Under the pieces are notes generated by a model. It saw only the letters and a program-made list of their open reading frames with translations. It made no database searches and was not told where the DNA came from. A stretch of DNA of 64,000 bases from Pseudomonadota bacterium (GTDB taxonomy: Bacteria > Pseudomonadota > Gammaproteobacteria > Steroidobacterales > Steroidobacteraceae), in assembly GCA_016713725.1 (NCBI GenBank), contig JADJOO010000020.1, positions 4,192 to 68,191 on the forward strand. The letters are read 5' to 3'. Below are positions 24,394-30,022 of the stretch, piece after piece (position 1 is the stretch's first letter; the number at the start of each line of letters is the position of its first letter). The translations under genes were made by a program, and so were the position numbers.

Positions 24394-25842
24394 TCAGGCC
24401 TGCTGCCGGATCCGCGAATGCTTGTAGCCGTACAGGAAGTAGATGAGGAAGCCGAGTCCAGTCCAAAGCGCCAGCCGGATCCACGTGTCGTGCGGCAGGA
24501 AGAGCGTCATGGCGAGGCAGATTGCCACGCCGGCCACGCCGGTGAAGGTGGCGAACGGCACGCGGAACGGACGCGGCGTATCTGGCTGCGTGCGGCGCAG
24601 CACGACAACGCCGGCGCACACCGCGCTGAATGCCAGCAGGATACCGATCGAGATCAATTCGCCAAGCACGTCGAGTGGAAAGATGCCGGCAAAGAACGCA
24701 GCGACCAAGCCGGTGATGATCGTAGCAACGTGCGGCGTGCGGTACTTCGGATGCACCTTCTGCATCGACGGCGGCAGCAGGCCATCGCGCGACATTGCCA
24801 TGAAAATGCGCGGCTGGCCGAGCAGCGACATCAGGATCACGGAGGTGAGGCCGACGATCGCACCGATCTTGACCGGCAGGCCGAGCCACTTCAGCTCCGG
24901 ATGGGCGTCGAGCGCGACCGCGACCGGTGCGGCGACGTTGAGTTCCGTGTACGACACCATGCCGGTCATCACGGCAGACATAAGGACATAGAGCACCGTC
25001 GAGATGAGCAGTGCCGCGATGATGCCCCACGGTACGTCGCGCTGCGGATTGCGGGCTTCCTGCGCCGTCGTCGCGGCCTGGTCGAAGCCGATGTAGGCAA
25101 AGAAGATGATTGCGGCGCCCTGCATGATGCCACTGAAGCCGAATTGTCCGGAGGTGCCTGTATTGGCGGGAAGGTAGGGCTGCCAGAGGTCGGGTGTCAC
25201 GTATTTGATGCCGACCGCGATGAACAGGACGATGATCAGGATCTTGATGATCACCATCACGTTATTGACGCGGGTCGACTGCTTCACGCCGACGTAACAC
25301 ACCCAGGTGAGCAGCGCGACGATCAGCACGGCCGGCACGTTGACCAGGGCGCCCGTCCTCACCAGGTGATTTTCCGCGCCTTTGCCAAGCGGCGCATTGG
25401 TGAGCGCGTCGGGCAGGTGGAGGCCGAATTCGGCGAGCAGGTTGACGACGTAGCCCGACCATCCGACCGCGACGGCAGCGCCCGACATCACGTATTCCAG
25501 CGCGAGGTTCCAGCCGACGAACCAGGCGACACCCTCGCCGAGCGTCGCGTACGTATAGCTGTAGGCGCTGCCCGAGATCGGGATCATCGAGGCCAGCTCG
25601 GCATAGCAGAGCGCGGCCAGACCGCAGCCGATGGCGGCCACGAGGAAGGCGAGGGTGACGGCGGGGCCAGTGTGCTGGGCGGCCACGGTGCCCGTCAGGA
25701 CGAAAATGCCGCTGCCGATCATCGAGCCCAGGCCGACGGAGGTCAGCGCTCGGCGGTCCAGTACGCGATTCAGCTTGGGCCCGGATTCGATTTCGCGAGT
25801 CATCGCAGCCACCGATTTGCGGGCTGCCAGCTGTTTCAGCAC
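24394..25842 (-). CDS. APC-family amino acid permease
   Basis: 12-TM profile with SVGLGSMIGSGIFVLTG and AELASMIPISGSAYSY motifs. Confidence 0.9.
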   Translation of the reverse strand: MLKQLAARKSVAAMTREIESGPKLNRVLDRRALTSVGLGSMIGSGIFVLTGTVAAQHTGPAVTLAFLVAAIGCGLAALCYAELASMIPISGSAYSYTYATLGEGVAWFVGWNLALEYVMSGAAVAVGWSGYVVNLLAEFGLHLPDALTNAPLGKGAENHLVRTGALVNVPAVLIVALLTWVCYVGVKQSTRVNNVMVIIKILIIVLFIAVGIKYVTPDLWQPYLPANTGTSGQFGFSGIMQGAAIIFFAYIGFDQAATTAQEARNPQRDVPWGIIAALLISTVLYVLMSAVMTGMVSYTELNVAAPVAVALDAHPELKWLGLPVKIGAIVGLTSVILMSLLGQPRIFMAMSRDGLLPPSMQKVHPKYRTPHVATIITGLVAAFFAGIFPLDVLGELISIGILLAFSAVCAGVVVLRRTQPDTPRPFRVPFATFTGVAGVAICLAMTLFLPHDTWIRLALWTGLGFLIYFLYGYKHSRIRQQA

Positions 25843-25916
25843 GAAGCTCTCCCCCTTTGCGAATTTGGCCCAAGTCTCTCACAGCCGCCCGGGCAGCCGC
25901 ATCCCGTTGCCTTATC

Positions 25917-27422
25917 ATGGAGGCAATGACGCCGAAGACGCCAGAAGCCAGCGCCTCGCCCGACTGGACCAGGCCACGTCCCATCGACACCACGTATTGG
26001 GTCGTGCCGGGCCGGTTCCTGGTGGGAGAACATCCGGGCTCGCGGTCACGCGCCCGGTCGATGGATCGGTTGCGCCGGTTCCTCGAGGCCGGCATCACCT
26101 GCTTCATCGACCTGACCGAGCCGGACGAAAGTTCCGCCTATGACCGGCATTTGCCGTTCGAAACATCGTCGGGACGGCGCATCGACTATCGGCGCCAGCC
26201 GATTCCGGATCACGGCGTACCGGCCGACCGCGCCACCATGGACCGTATCCTGGCGATGCTGGACGACGCCCTCTCAACCGGCCACGGCGTGTACCTGCAC
26301 TGCCGGGCCGGCATCGGCCGCAGCGCGACAGTCGCCGGCTGCTGGCTTGCCGAACGCAATCCGGGCGGGGGTGAGGCAGCGCTCACCGAGCTGGGCGACT
26401 ACTGGCGACAGTGCCGGCAATCGAGGTCATGGCCGCAGGTGCCGGAAACCAGCGAGCAGGAGGAATTCGTACGCAACTGGCAACCGTTGCGGCCAGGGGT
26501 GAAAGGCGTCGCAAAATCGTCGGGGCCGGCCAGGGGTCTTGCGCTGGAGCAGCGCGTGCGCGGGGGTTGGTTCGGGCTCGCGCTGGGCGATGCGCTCGGC
26601 GCAACGAGCGCAGCCGCGGCAACGAGGAACCTGCCGCTGGCATGGACACAGCACACGTCGCTCGCGCTCTGCCTCGCCGAAAGCCTGAACGCCCTCGGGC
26701 GCAGCGATGCGCGTGACCAGATCGAGCGCTACTGGCGTTGGTTCAAGGATGGACACCTGACGGCTACGGGTCAGCCCGGCGAAACCGGCGCGTCGCCCGA
26801 TGTCGCGAAAGCGCTGGCGACCTTCCGCTGGCGCGGCTTGCCGGTGGCCGGTTCGCACGATCCGAAGGACGCCGCCGCGACGAGCTTGCCGCGCGTCCTC
26901 GCTGCCGCGCTGTTTGCGGGTAACAATCCCGCAGGTGCCATCGCACTTGCTGCCGAGTGTTCGCGCACCACCCATCAGTCGCCCCTGGTCCTCGACACCT
27001 GTCGCGCCTACTCGGCGATGTTGCTTTGCGCACTGCGCGGGCAGCCGGCGCACGACTGGTTGCGGGCCGTTCCCGAACCCCTGCCCGGGTGCTGGACAGC
27101 CAAGCCGTTGCGCAAAGACGTTCAGGCTGCGGTTGCCACCGCGCCGCCTGCCGAAGGCGCCACGGCGACCGGTGGCACGATCGACGTGGTGCAGGCGCTC
27201 GCACTCGCGCGTCGTATCGCCGGCGACGCAAAAGATTTCGATGCCGCCATCGTTGCGACAAGACGCAACGCGGGCGACGAGGCAGCCCTGGTCGCAGGGC
27301 TCGTCGGCACGATGTTCGGCCTGCAGCACGGTATGGACGTGCTGCCCCCGGATGCAAGCTCGGCCGGCTCGCGGGCCGCACGCACCTCGAAGTTACGGTC
27401 GATCATTGCGTTGCGCGCCTGA
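25917..27422 (+). CDS. Fusion protein: dual-specificity/Cys-phosphatase domain plus ADP-ribosylglycohydrolase (ARH)-like domain
   Basis: HCRAGIGRS P-loop (CX5R) with upstream PIPDHG. The C-terminal ARH fold is marked by GLALGDALGA, SRTTHQSP and LVAGLVGTMFG. Confidence 0.75.
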   Translation: MEAMTPKTPEASASPDWTRPRPIDTTYWVVPGRFLVGEHPGSRSRARSMDRLRRFLEAGITCFIDLTEPDESSAYDRHLPFETSSGRRIDYRRQPIPDHGVPADRATMDRILAMLDDALSTGHGVYLHCRAGIGRSATVAGCWLAERNPGGGEAALTELGDYWRQCRQSRSWPQVPETSEQEEFVRNWQPLRPGVKGVAKSSGPARGLALEQRVRGGWFGLALGDALGATSAAAATRNLPLAWTQHTSLALCLAESLNALGRSDARDQIERYWRWFKDGHLTATGQPGETGASPDVAKALATFRWRGLPVAGSHDPKDAAATSLPRVLAAALFAGNNPAGAIALAAECSRTTHQSPLVLDTCRAYSAMLLCALRGQPAHDWLRAVPEPLPGCWTAKPLRKDVQAAVATAPPAEGATATGGTIDVVQALALARRIAGDAKDFDAAIVATRRNAGDEAALVAGLVGTMFGLQHGMDVLPPDASSAGSRAARTSKLRSIIALRA

Positions 27423-27444
27423 CGGCGACGGGCGGAGTGGCGAA

Positions 27445-28482
27445 GTGAAACCTCGTCGGCGCCGGTTGCGCGAACCTGCGTGGACGCGGCTCGACGATGA
27501 GGCGCTGCTCGACATGCGCCTCTGCGACCTGCGCCTGTCGCTTGCACGGTCGGGCCTCGACCAGCCGGTGCAACGCCTCTACGAGGAATTGCGGCTCAAG
27601 GGCATCCTCTTCCGTCCGCATGTCTGGCTGTCCGAAGAATGGTTCTCGCCGGACGGCGTTCCCGGGATCGCCGTGCCGTTCTTCCTGGCGCATCCGCGGC
27701 TGCAGCGCCTCGAACGGCGCTTCATGCGCGAGGTCGAGGGTGGCAACGACAAGTGGCTGATGCGCATCCTGCGCCACGAAACCGGGCATGCGATCGACAC
27801 TGCGTTCGGGCTGCGGCGGCGCAAGACCTGGCGCGACACGTTCGGCAAGGCCTCGCGCCGATATCCGTCGCGGTATTCCCCGCGGCCAGCCAGCCGCCGG
27901 TTCGTGCTGCACCTCGGCCACTGGTACGCGCAGAGTCATCCCACCGAAGATTTCGCCGAAACGTTCGCCGTCTGGCTGCCGCGCAGATCGCGCTGGCGCA
28001 GCCAGTACGCCGGCTGGCCCGCGCTGCGCAAGCTCGAATACGTCGACGCGACGATGCGCAACCTGCATGGCAAGCGCGCGGTGTGCCTGAACCGCGATGT
28101 CGTCGAGCCGCTGGCCGAGAATACCCGCACGCTGCGCGAACACTATCGGCGCAAACAGCGGCGTTACGAACTCAACACCGCGCGCACTTACGATCGTCGC
28201 CTGCTGCGCGTGTTCGGCACCGCAGAGGATCACCCGTCCGGGCCGCAGGCCAGCAGGTTCCTGCGCAAGGTGCAGCCGCAGGTCGAGCGGTTGATGATTC
28301 GTCGCGCGAGAATGCACCCGTACCTGGTCCAGCACGTCCTGAAAATAGCGACCCAGCGCGCACGCCGCATGAACCTGCGGCTCAGTCACAACCAGCGCGA
28401 CACCAAGCGTGCGGTGCTGGTGATGCTCGAGCGCATCATGCTTGAGATGTTGCTGCGGGACCGCGAGAACTACGCCCTATGA
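27445..28482 (+). CDS. Putative zinc metallopeptidase (HExxH), conserved partner of the downstream ATP-grasp gene
   Basis: LRHETGHAID motif and HPTEDFAETFAVW. GTG at 27445 lies 22 nt after the upstream stop. The stop overlaps the next start (ATGA). Confidence 0.7.
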   Translation: MKPRRRRLREPAWTRLDDEALLDMRLCDLRLSLARSGLDQPVQRLYEELRLKGILFRPHVWLSEEWFSPDGVPGIAVPFFLAHPRLQRLERRFMREVEGGNDKWLMRILRHETGHAIDTAFGLRRRKTWRDTFGKASRRYPSRYSPRPASRRFVLHLGHWYAQSHPTEDFAETFAVWLPRRSRWRSQYAGWPALRKLEYVDATMRNLHGKRAVCLNRDVVEPLAENTRTLREHYRRKQRRYELNTARTYDRRLLRVFGTAEDHPSGPQASRFLRKVQPQVERLMIRRARMHPYLVQHVLKIATQRARRMNLRLSHNQRDTKRAVLVMLERIMLEMLLRDRENYAL

Positions 28483-29510
28483 CCAAGAAACCCCTGCGCG
28501 TGCTCGTGCTCGTGCACGAAACGCTGGTGCCTCCCGAGTCCACCGACGGCTACTCTCCACAGGAGGTCGACGAGTGGCGCACCGAGTACGACGTGACCTC
28601 GTCGCTGAAGGCGATGGGGCACGAGGTGAGGGCGCTTGGCATGGGCGACAACCTGGCCGAACTGCGCTCCACGATCATGGAGTGGAAGCCCGACATCGCC
28701 TTCAACCTGCTCGAGGAATTCCAGGGCATCGTCACGTACGACCAGTACGTGGTGGCCTTTCTGGAGCTGATGCGGCTGCCGTACACCGGCTGCAACCCGC
28801 GCGGCATGATGATCTCGCGCGACAAGGTGCTGTCGAAGCAGATTCTCGCCTACCACCGCATTCCCACCGCGCGGTACGCGCTGCTGCCGCGCAAGCGCCG
28901 CTATGTCGAGCCGCGCAAACTCAAATTCCCGCTGTTCGTCAAGTCGGCCACCGAGGATGCCTCGCTCGGCATCTCGCAGGCCTCGATCGTCTACGACGGC
29001 CAGAAGCTGCGGGAGCGAGTCGAGTTCATCCACGAGCAGACGAATTCGGATGCTCTGGTCGAGGAGTACATCGAAGGCCGCGAACTCTACATCGGCGTGA
29101 TGGGCAACGAGAGGCTGACGACCCTGCCGGTGTGGGAACTCAATTTCGGCACGCTGCCCGACGTGATGTCGATCGCGACGCGCAAGGTGAAGTGGGACCG
29201 CAAGTACCAGGTGCGGCACGGCATCGGCACGGGTCCCGCCCTTGATTTGCCGCCCGGCCTGTCGCCGCGGCTCGCCACACTCGTGCGGCGCATCTATCGC
29301 GCGCTGTCACTCAGCGGGTATGCGCGAATCGACTTGCGCTTGAAGCCGGACGGCGGGGTGTACGTGCTCGAGGCAAATGCGAATCCCAACCTCGCCCAGA
29401 TCGAGGATTTCGCGACCTCGGCGCTCGCTTGCGGCATGGAATACGACGCCGTGCTGGAGCGGATCCTGCAGTACGGGCAGAACTACGACGCGGCATGGCG
29501 GCAGTCCTGA
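28479..29510 (+). CDS. ATP-grasp protein, D-alanine--D-alanine ligase family
   Basis: LRVLVLVHE...KPDIAFNLLEEF..., FPLFVKSATEDASLGI, EEYIEGRELYIGV, ARIDLRL...YVLEANANPNL. Confidence 0.85.
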   Translation: MTKKPLRVLVLVHETLVPPESTDGYSPQEVDEWRTEYDVTSSLKAMGHEVRALGMGDNLAELRSTIMEWKPDIAFNLLEEFQGIVTYDQYVVAFLELMRLPYTGCNPRGMMISRDKVLSKQILAYHRIPTARYALLPRKRRYVEPRKLKFPLFVKSATEDASLGISQASIVYDGQKLRERVEFIHEQTNSDALVEEYIEGRELYIGVMGNERLTTLPVWELNFGTLPDVMSIATRKVKWDRKYQVRHGIGTGPALDLPPGLSPRLATLVRRIYRALSLSGYARIDLRLKPDGGVYVLEANANPNLAQIEDFATSALACGMEYDAVLERILQYGQNYDAAWRQS

Positions 29511-29623
29511 CTACGCGCCGATGATCTGAGGCGTGCGAGTGGCGGCGGCGCCTTGTCGCGAGCGCGAGTGTGCCTCTTGGCCCAAGCTCAGGGACAGGCG
29601 CCTGATCGCACGCCTGGATCGGT

Positions 29624-30022
29624 CTAGAGCGTGCGGCCCGTCTTCTGGAAGTGCGTGCGCTCGAAGATCGTCTGGCAGTCGATGCAGCGCAACGCCTGTG
29701 GCGTGAGGTTCAGCCGCTTCACATCGATCGGCTTGTCGCACGCTTCGCAGACGCCGTAGCTGCCATCCGCCACTCGCAGCAGCGCTGCGTCGATCGCGCG
29801 CAGTTCGTCGAGGTCGCGATCGATTTCGGCGAGGCCGACGTCCACGATCAGGTCGGCGAACGATTCGTCCTCCAGTTCCCGCACCGAGTCGGCGATCTGC
29901 AGATAGTGTTCCGAATCGCTCCGGATCAGCGCCTGGCGGATTTCTTCGCGCAACTGGATTTGCCGCGCGCGCATGGCCGTTTGCAGCGACTCGAGCTGCT
30001 TGTTCTGGAGGTTGCGAGTCAT
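29624..30022 (-). CDS. DksA/TraR-family C4 zinc-finger protein
   Basis: CEACDKPI...CIDC zinc finger after a coiled-coil region. ATG at 30022 is 7 nt from AAGGAAG. Confidence 0.75.
   Translation of the reverse strand: MTRNLQNKQLESLQTAMRARQIQLREEIRQALIRSDSEHYLQIADSVRELEDESFADLIVDVGLAEIDRDLDELRAIDAALLRVADGSYGVCEACDKPIDVKRLNLTPQALRCIDCQTIFERTHFQKTGRTL

Follow-up and report, generated by a model that had tools for sequence, protein, structure and literature searches.

Gene layout and coding status of the locus

The window analysed here, a 64,000-nucleotide stretch of a Steroidobacteraceae genome (assembly GCA_016713725.1, contig JADJOO010000020.1, positions 4,192 to 68,191), contains an open reading frame (ORF) that encodes a cysteine phosphatase fused to a domain with the ADP-ribosylhydrolase (ARH) fold. 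This gene is the first of three on the forward strand. Judged from the sequence, its product is probably an active phosphatase that carries a non-hydrolytic, ARH-derived accessory domain and works with the peptidase/ligase pair encoded directly downstream. The genes and domains are as follows.

25917..27422, + strand: coding sequence of the fusion protein (phosphatase / ARH-like, 501 amino acids)
25974..26486, + strand: Cys-phosphatase domain, residues ~20-190, of the dual-specificity phosphatase (DSP)/protein tyrosine phosphatase (PTP) type in the rhodanese-phosphatase superfamily (Pfam, Foldseek)
26487..26552, + strand: interdomain linker, residues 191-212 (low model confidence, 20% pairwise identity)
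26553..27353, + strand: ARH-fold domain, residues 213-479, catalytic residues lost (PF03747, Foldseek, omega)
27445..28482, + strand: HExxH zincin-like peptidase (Peptidase_Mx, hereafter PepMx; 345 amino acids), HETGH at 27775-27789 (PF15887, 28.7 bits)
28479..29510, + strand: Ddl-like ATP-grasp ligase (343 amino acids; PF07478, E 1.6e-27), its start overlapping the peptidase stop (ATGA)

The ORF at 25917-27422 (+) translates without a stop codon into 501 amino acids, and an alternative ATG at 25926 gives the 498-amino-acid form that is found in the public protein collection. The G+C content of the window is 65%. Within the ORF, the G+C content at the third codon position (GC3) is 0.75-0.82 from 25950 to 27420, compared to 0.54-0.74 at the other two positions; since GC3 is high over the whole length, both domains are coding. 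An overlapping ORF in frame 0 has a coding signal only beyond ~27450. Both domains are recognised by Pfam. PF03747 (ADP_ribosyl_GH) matches residues 216-478 (E 6.5e-32, 111.8 bits against a cut-off of 26.2), and the phosphatase models span residues 27-184, all above their cut-offs (PF22785, Tc-R-P, E 5.2e-12, 46.7 against 27; PF22784, PTP-SAK, E 2.1e-10, 41.3 against 27; DSPc, E 3.5e-8, 33.8 against 33.5). The AlphaFold2 (AF2) model of the fusion protein, built with 65 homologues as input, has a mean predicted local distance difference test (pLDDT) score of 86.8 and a predicted template modelling (pTM) score of 0.64, with a disordered linker (pLDDT below 50 at residues 195-205). Within the clade, pairwise identity averages 72% in the phosphatase, 58% in the ARH-like domain and 20% in the linker. 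A promoter and terminator scan of 25700-29750 gave no signal over the shuffled expectation.

The phosphatase domain is intact

Two motifs mark the catalytic site of the N-terminal domain.

26199..26222, + strand: general-acid loop PIPDHGVP, with Asp98 at 26208-26210 (aligns with IPDFCPP of VHZ)
26298..26324, + strand: P-loop HCRAGIGRS, residues 128-136, with Cys129 and Arg135 (invariant HC(X)5R(S/T))

The general-acid Asp lies ~30 residues before the Cys, and with the P-loop and the match in fold and model the domain shows the features of the Cys-phosphatase superfamily. A Foldseek search with the N-terminal domain found VHZ/DUSP23 (4erc, TMt 0.77), and Asp98 and Cys129 of the query align with D65 and C95 of that enzyme. 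A word-index search for homologues gave 1129 matches, of which the best 120 all have both domains; the named ones are Steroidobacteraceae proteins from metagenome-assembled genomes (MAGs). Residues were counted over 114 full-length homologues with 52-100% identity, to which the counts below refer. The P-loop Cys, the P-loop Arg, Asp98 and His99 are each present in 114/114, and the HC(X)5R(S/T) P-loop is kept in all 79 orthogroup and outgroup loci aligned for the full-length tree below and also in phosphatase-only relatives. The initial annotation of this DNA had proposed an active phosphatase; with D98 and C129 in register with the VHZ residues and both invariant, the N-terminal domain apparently is an active cysteine phosphatase of the dual-specificity/rhodanese-phosphatase type. 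Absence of the catalytic Cys in orthologues was looked for, and the Cys was found throughout, including in the genes that encode the phosphatase alone.

The ARH-fold domain has lost its catalytic residues

The C-terminal part keeps the ARH scaffold, as had been noted before: besides the PF03747 match, the structure model is superposed by Foldseek on the Thermus ARH 2cwc (TMt 0.76), DraG (TMt 0.75) and Tri1 (E 7e-12), with an overall TMt of 0.75-0.77. Residues were mapped from HMMER alignments to Thermus 2cwc, Tri1 6dre and DraG 2woc, and the motif homology given here is that of HMMER and MAFFT. For the roles of the ARH3 and DraG residues we presume what is established knowledge and what the titles of the mutant structures convey (ARH3 E41A, D77A, D314A/E; DraG D97N). 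The relevant segments are listed below.

26574-26603, + strand: GLALGDALGA, ARH scaffold with the start of the GDALG helix retained
26646-26657, + strand: TQHT in place of the metal-binding T-D-D-T (HMMER alignments to 2cwc and 6dre; Q245 in 114/114)
26847..26897, + strand: AGSHDPKDAAATSLPRV, with the orthogroup signatures AGSHDP and SLPRV and with A320-A321-T322 at the GNG loop (alignment to AGNGSLMRL of canonical fusions)
26964-26984, + strand: RTTHQSP (canonical RTTHG), the most conserved segment of the domain (conservation 0.99; T352, Q354 and P356 invariant)
27267-27293, + strand: NAGDEAALV, degenerate remnant of N-L-G-x-D-x-D-T (alignment; conservation 0.49; relaxed omega)

The query segment WTQHTS falls on WTDDTS of 2cwc and 6dre, with T244-Q245-H246-T247 in place of T-D-D-T and the DD pair replaced by Q-H. 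The segment NAGDEAALV falls on NLGGDADTV or NLGDDADSV; here DxDT becomes E455-A456-A457-L458, with one acid conservatively kept as Glu455 and the second Asp and the Thr gone. The catalytic Glu of GDALGxxxE (the ARH3 E41 position) is Ala232, the Asp of CFDIG (DraG D97) is Glu289, and TTHG reads T352-H353-Q354. At the GNG loop, the canonical A-G-N-G-S-L-M-R reads A-A320-A321-T322-S-L-P-R. The sites mutated as ARH3 E41, D77 and D314 and DraG D97 are therefore Ala232, Gln245, Glu455 and Glu289 in the query. As a member of PF03747, the protein matches at the level of fold and model and lacks the T-D-D-T, the D-x-D-T, the catalytic Glu and the GNG loop; of the five feature sets that characterise an active enzyme, it has lost four. 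Its scores against the NCBIfam equivalogs are far under the cut-offs (Tri1, 57.7 against 490; DraG, 34 against 337).

The initial annotation had read TQHT for TDDT, which the alignment confirms at 26646-26657. Its reading of G-G-D-T-D-T as NAGDEAA stands for the second Asp and the Thr, which are lost, and is softened for the first acid, which survives as Glu455. Losses of the catalytic Glu (Ala232) and the GNG loop (A320-A321-T322) had not been recorded there, and all of the motif strings that it quoted were recovered at the positions it gave. Acidic ligands conserved at shifted positions were searched for with no result, and the loss is clade-wide. Two substitutes were considered and rejected: a shifted acidic pair in place of DD, for which no conserved acid lies near 245/246, and D315, whose conserved counterpart is present in canonical members too (GSTDP). 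From these alignments we infer that the ARH-fold domain of the query clade would no longer be an ADP-ribosylhydrolase.

Stepwise decay of the ARH-fold domain within the family

An exhaustive search of 1.84 billion cluster representatives gave 5279 relatives; among the best 150 of these, the order PTP-ARH was found in 72 and ARH-PTP in 13. In the ARH-domain alignment, the distant fusions are fully canonical (GDAxGTTxEF, WTDDTSMA, SRTTHG, NLGDDADTT). A genome scan with the canonical fusions found them in Planctomycetota, Chloroflexota, Verrucomicrobiota, Desulfobacterota, Gemmatimonadota, Acidobacteriota and others, and those of the first four phyla retain every ARH motif. In some canonical cases, the phosphatase and the ARH are encoded by adjacent genes and not by one polypeptide, and in one locus (L055) two tandem phosphatase domains stand ahead of the ADP-ribosylglycohydrolase (ARG) domain.

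We aligned 79 orthogroup and outgroup proteins and built a full-length tree with the trait columns removed; this and the phosphatase-domain tree come from quick searches with support from the Shimodaira-Hasegawa-like approximate likelihood ratio test (SH-aLRT) only. The operon-linked Steroidobacteraceae orthogroup is monophyletic (SH-aLRT 100). The whole orthogroup lacks the catalytic Glu and the GNG loop, and all members have AGSHDP and R-x-T-x-Q-x-P. W-T/S-D-D/E/K-T and D-x-D persist in a basal grade, and a clade of 49 rows (SH-aLRT 96) lacks the acidic ligands. Two groups make up the acid-less clade: a Steroidobacter/Povalibacter subclade, in which the residues vary (A/S/P-D/S/L), and the query clade (support 100), in which Gln245 is fixed. 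As to whether the metal ligands were lost once or twice, the full-length tree unites both acid-less subclades (96), and the phosphatase-domain tree, weakly supported, does not.

From family genomes in which only N-terminal matches had been found, 12 loci were fetched. In seven of them, a phosphatase-only gene (176-264 amino acids, with intact HC(X)5RT and DH) immediately precedes PepMx and the ATP-grasp gene. In four others, the phosphatase and the ARH-like part are split into neighbouring ORFs, and the peptidase is missing from three of these four loci; the last locus has a divergent fusion. In the phosphatase-domain tree, the phosphatase-only proteins group within the orthogroup, with support 99 against the canonical outgroup, and are scattered among the fusion lineages, one of them, for example, beside the fusion of locus L020 with support 94. 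Since they are nested and scattered within the fusion clade, the ARH domain was lost secondarily, probably more than once. Taken together, these results show that the ARH domain decayed stepwise: the Glu and the GNG loop were lost orthogroup-wide, then the metal ligands in a large subclade, and then the domain was split off or deleted in several genera. The invariant element across the family is a Cys-phosphatase that heads the peptidase/ligase pair, and the ARH-derived domain is optional at this scale.

Some fusion homologues contain in-frame stops (G078, one TAG; G047, one TGA and one TAG; G083, one TAG; G100, two TGA), and these copies may be pseudogenes or sequencing errors.

Conservation and selection in the query clade

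While Gln245 is invariant, His246 is found in 99/114 homologues and is replaced by Pro in 14. T352, H353, Q354, S355 and P356 are almost invariant; the former DxDT segment is variable, with Ala or Ser in the column of the second Asp in 102/114. At least 97% conservation is seen at 44 positions of the ARH domain over the 114 homologues, down to 52% identity. The mean conservation of the domain is 0.69, and the loops around the old cleft deviate from it in both directions. GDALG (0.92), TQHT (0.89), AGSHDP (0.96), SLPRV (0.98) and RTTHQSP (0.99) lie above it, and the Glu site (0.45), the former GNG loop (0.65), the CFDIG region (0.64) and the former DxDT (0.49, the lowest cleft segment) lie below it. 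This unevenness shows that part of the old cleft is strongly constrained with new residues, and that its metal and diphosphate parts are relaxed.

The ratio of nonsynonymous to synonymous substitution rates (omega) was calculated by the Nei-Gojobori method against four relatives with a synonymous divergence (dS) below 0.8. It is 0.19-0.31 for the ARH-like domain compared to 0.12-0.31 for the phosphatase; within the former, residues 213-399 have 0.15-0.25, and residues 400-479, which include the former second metal motif, reach 0.4-0.8. The ARH-like domain of the query clade is thus under purifying selection, with omega ~0.2-0.3.

These values bear on two other explanations of the domain. The first is that it is a functionless relic, kept since its removal would destabilise the phosphatase and heading for loss. 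The decay series does end in full loss, the C-terminal third is relaxed (omega up to 0.8) and copies with in-frame stops occur in some family genomes. However, omega over the domain as a whole resembles that of the phosphatase, 44 positions are highly conserved, and the conserved positions concentrate in the cleft loops and not in the hydrophobic core alone, which makes a mere relic quite unlikely.

The second, which the initial annotation had also raised, is that the domain is still an enzyme with altered chemistry, using a metal-independent or mononuclear site in the remodelled cleft. Candidate residues are Q245, H246, H314, D315, H353, Q354, E289, E455 and several invariant arginines. Such an enzyme would cleave another kind of bond in what the ligase/peptidase pathway makes, such as a ribosyl, phosphoribosyl or ester linkage, and the phosphatase would then remove the exposed phosphate. 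In its favour, some of the remodelled cleft loops are strongly conserved: the loops of the former active site stand out as the best-conserved stretches of the domain (0.89-0.99 against the mean of 0.69), with many invariant polar and Arg residues and low omega at residues 213-399. Moreover, AGSHDP and TxQxP predate the loss of the acids and persist orthogroup-wide, and an acid persists at position 455 in most members. On the other hand, the domain is deleted or split in at least 11 sampled genomes in which the phosphatase and the operon persist, H246 is Pro or Ser in some members, and the Steroidobacter/Povalibacter subclade has quite different residues at this site. No precedent for metal-free catalysis in an ARH fold turned up. 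We consider altered chemistry unlikely, and a non-hydrolytic module, the binding role that had been offered as the other option for the ARH-like part, is the best reading of a domain whose metal ligands are lost clade-wide.

The fusion gene heads a conserved, predicted operon with a peptidase and an ATP-grasp ligase

The PepMx gene begins with GTG 22 nt past the stop of the fusion gene, with GGAG 8 nt upstream. PepMx is a very basic protein with invariant EEWFSPDGxPG, HExxH and SHxxEDFAETFAVW motifs, and its AF2 model has a pLDDT of 83.4. Foldseek against the PDB gave only non-significant matches to the catalytic cores of zincins in general (E at least 0.3), and a PDB sequence search gave none. 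The ATP-grasp ligase scores well under the Ddl cut-offs, and a genuine ddl lies on another contig (C7) of the same genome. Against the Ddl model, this housekeeping ddl (C7:99346-100240) gives two matches that follow each other in different frames (235.9 and 79.9 bits), which suggests a frameshift or a MAG assembly error.

The family survey found a homologue of the fusion protein in 110/121 genomes and 40/40 genera (90/96 of the high-quality genomes), nearly always as one copy. The order fusion, PepMx, ATP-grasp gene on the same strand is present in ~27 of the 30 family loci retrieved, and in 3/30 the fusion gene directly precedes the ATP-grasp gene without PepMx. PepMx is missing in family loci L011, L019, L022, L196, L199 and L200, where the ATP-grasp gene comes straight after the fused phosphatase gene or, if the ARH-like part is a gene of its own, after the phosphatase and that gene; some lineages can therefore do without the peptidase as well.

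A genome scan anchored on PepMx gave 566 loci. Among the best 80, the ATP-grasp gene is directly downstream in 76 and the fusion gene directly upstream in 45. The PepMx/ATP-grasp pair (27445-29510 in the window; loci L147-L192 elsewhere) is a self-contained two-gene module that is widespread beyond the Steroidobacteraceae. From the gene order within the family, we infer that the fusion protein is functionally coupled to its neighbouring genes.

On the other side of the fusion gene lies a divergent amino-acid permease gene (24394-25842, - strand), separated from it by an intergenic region of 74 nt. The permease is syntenic with the fusion gene in the query clade and in the Steroidobacter/Povalibacter subclade (61-99% identity) and is absent from the basal-grade loci.

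The link to ADP-ribose and to conflict systems

The own genome of the query encodes a separate, stand-alone canonical ARH paralogue of 358 amino acids on contig C19 (C19:6353-7228; L031, ORF 1402-2478, - strand). It has the motifs GDALGNTSE, SDDS, AGNGALMR, ITH and DDNDT and adjoins an aldehyde-dehydrogenase-like gene. A search of the genome for Macro domains found none. Action on ADP-ribose derivatives, proposed in the initial annotation as a possible role of the fusion protein, has become less likely because the Glu and the GNG loop are lost, a separate canonical ARH is present on C19, a Macro domain was not found and the operon partners have no known link to ADP-ribose. With those losses orthogroup-wide, the domain deleted in sister genera and partners that are not ADP-ribose enzymes, the case for this role is weak.

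The neighbours of the canonical fusions are of another kind. They include a ResIII helicase with a PLD nuclease, PD-(D/E)XK nucleases, an SF1 helicase, DUF4062 with HATPase_c_4, and an ArdC-like (ArdC/M78-like) protein, and canonical loci L033-L039 resemble defence islands. In the canonical fusions of other phyla, the PepMx/ATP-grasp pair is not nearby, with two exceptions that are gammaproteobacterial loci of the orthogroup. The coupling of ARG with phosphatases of the rhodanese-phosphatase superfamily was reported by Iyer, Burroughs, Anantharaman and Aravind (2022, PMC9503650, section 3.8) as part of predicted anti-viral ADP-ribose systems. These ARG-centric systems are predicted to act against viral ADP-ribosylation and contain Nudix or WYL regulators, chaperones and restriction endonuclease (REase)/helicase effectors (PMC9503650). 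Since the canonical neighbourhoods match this description, the fusion as such is already known.

One could therefore ask whether the query protein is still part of an anti-viral system of this type, with the ARH-like domain reading ADP-ribosylated host macromolecules or free derivatives, the phosphatase dephosphorylating them, and the neighbouring genes unrelated. The homology to canonical fusions and the published prediction for the system type (PMC9503650) would agree with this, as would the best PTP Pfam models (PTP-SAK, PTP-NADK, Tc-R-P), which by name come from NAD and conflict contexts, the sense of these names being that of their one-line descriptions only. However, the GNG loop and the catalytic Glu are lost orthogroup-wide, and the gene is a near-universal single-copy core gene, not a patchy one, in a tight, conserved order with PepMx and the ATP-grasp gene. 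Its neighbours are TonB receptors, NikR, an amino-acid permease, PepMx, the ATP-grasp gene, DksA, Def, M49 and Pirin, with no Nudix or WYL regulator, nuclease or helicase in the neighbourhood within the window, and a PADLOC scan of all three operon proteins gave no model match. A persisting anti-viral role of this kind is highly improbable.

Proposed reading: a working phosphatase with a retained, non-hydrolytic partner domain

The findings can be arranged in the following scheme. The protein would descend from the ARG-phosphatase fusions of ADP-ribose-processing conflict systems. The fusion would have turned into a single-copy core gene in the Steroidobacteraceae ancestor, at the head of an operon with the HExxH peptidase and the Ddl-like ATP-grasp ligase. 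The ARH part then decayed, first at the Glu and the GNG loop and then at the acidic ligands, with the query clade fixing Gln245 (then His246 in 87%). The phosphatase would do the enzymatic work and act together with the peptidase/ligase pair. Going by family assignments only, this pair probably forms a peptide or amide bond on a protein or small molecule and trims it. The phosphatase probably removes a phosphate from a substrate, a product or a regulator of the pair. In the query clade, the ARH-derived domain may have been retained as a non-hydrolytic module for docking, regulation or stability that uses part of the old cleft.

Several observations weigh against an active phosphatase with a non-hydrolytic accessory domain that serves this pair. 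An acid persists at position 455 in 89/114 homologues and E289 in 69/114, and a single metal site might conceivably survive in the ARH-like domain. The conserved polar cleft residues Q245, H246, H314, D315, H353 and Q354, together with the invariant R306, R326, R363 and R432, would also fit a new catalytic site. The relative orientation of the two domains is uncertain in the model, given the pTM of 0.64 and the disordered linker. As for the operon, 34 of the best 80 among the 566 PepMx loci have the PepMx/ATP-grasp pair and no phosphatase gene, and no third conserved neighbour was found at these 34 pairs. The synteny may also reflect vertical inheritance in part, as the upstream permease is syntenic in many loci too.

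On a further reading, which we regard as rather unlikely, the remodelled cleft would be a new active or ligand site, metal-independent or with a single metal, for a phosphorylated molecule other than ADP-ribose that the ligase/peptidase pair makes or processes. Gln245, His246, His314-Asp315, Thr352-His353-Gln354 and the four arginines would make up this site. If so, the three genes would form an undescribed pathway that yields either a protein with a peptide or amide tail or a small phospho-metabolite, and a fusion of ARG and phosphatase once used in defence would have been exapted into core metabolism.

The locus belongs to a rare decay series within one bacterial family, from canonical fusion through loss of the loop and Glu and loss of the metal ligands to splitting and deletion, during which the partner phosphatase and the operon stay fixed. 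As a natural experiment, it shows which of two fused enzymes counts once the context has changed. Together, the genes for the phosphatase, the HExxH peptidase and the Ddl-like ligase make up a conserved, uncharacterised operon that is core to the Steroidobacteraceae, which are abundant Gammaproteobacteria of soil and sediment. In the searchable literature, where a prior mention is possible, we found neither the degenerate clade nor its operon nor the decay series described, and a search for literature on 'Swiss Army Knife' (PTP-SAK) and DSP-ARG fusions gave nothing useful. Public records name the homologues 'ADP-ribosylglycohydrolase' or 'ADP-ribosyl-[dinitrogen reductase] hydrolase'; for proteins of the orthogroup such names are very probably wrong, a warning for automatic annotation.

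Comparison with known systems

For the N-terminal domain, the best solved matches are VHZ/DUSP23 and small archaeal DSPs (4erc, 2img, 5z5b, 2i6i). The P-loop and the general acid are in register, at an identity of just 27-28%, and the query differs from VHZ/DUSP23 in a C-terminal extension, WPxVPETxEQxxFV, that is typical of the PTP-SAK model. For the C-terminal domain, DraG, ARH3, Tri1 and the Thermus TTHA-type proteins (PF03747) share the all-helical fold, and the query keeps the start of the GDALG helix and the TTH motif; in contrast to these enzymes, it lacks the GNG loop and scores far under the Tri1 and DraG equivalog cut-offs.

The operon resembles in its logic the RimABK-type triads of Pseudomonas, in which an ATP-grasp ligase, a protease and a signalling-nucleotide enzyme control the modification of a protein tail. 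Both combine a ligase, a peptidase and a third, regulatory or processing enzyme, with no homology claimed: the components are the RimK ligase, an aspartic-type protease and an EAL-domain enzyme in the one, and a Ddl-like ligase, a zincin and a phosphatase in the other.

A precedent for a non-catalytic ARH fold is ADPRHL1 (ARH2), a vertebrate ARH pseudoenzyme that lacks the catalytic residues and yet is conserved and functional (PMC7390403, PMC10601310). The query-clade domain would be its bacterial counterpart, by analogy only, since ADPRHL1 is eukaryotic, stand-alone and cardiac, has no phosphatase fusion and goes back to an independent loss event.

The closest relatives are those of the ARG-centric systems (PMC9503650), in which the same two domains occur in one polypeptide or in adjacent genes; the query has both in one polypeptide and is homologous over its full length to the canonical ARG-phosphatase fusions, with 31-38% identity. 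The canonical fusions keep the Glu, TDDT, GNG and DxDT and have the P-loop HCWGGxGRT, whereas the orthogroup of the query lacks the ARH catalytic set. The former are found amid helicase, nuclease and anti-restriction genes, and the latter is tied to the peptidase/ATP-grasp pair. While ARG-centric systems have a patchy distribution and variable modules, the query gene is near-universal in its family, usually single copy and stable in its order. The fusion type is thus already known, and what is different here is the core-operon context together with the degenerate ARH domain.

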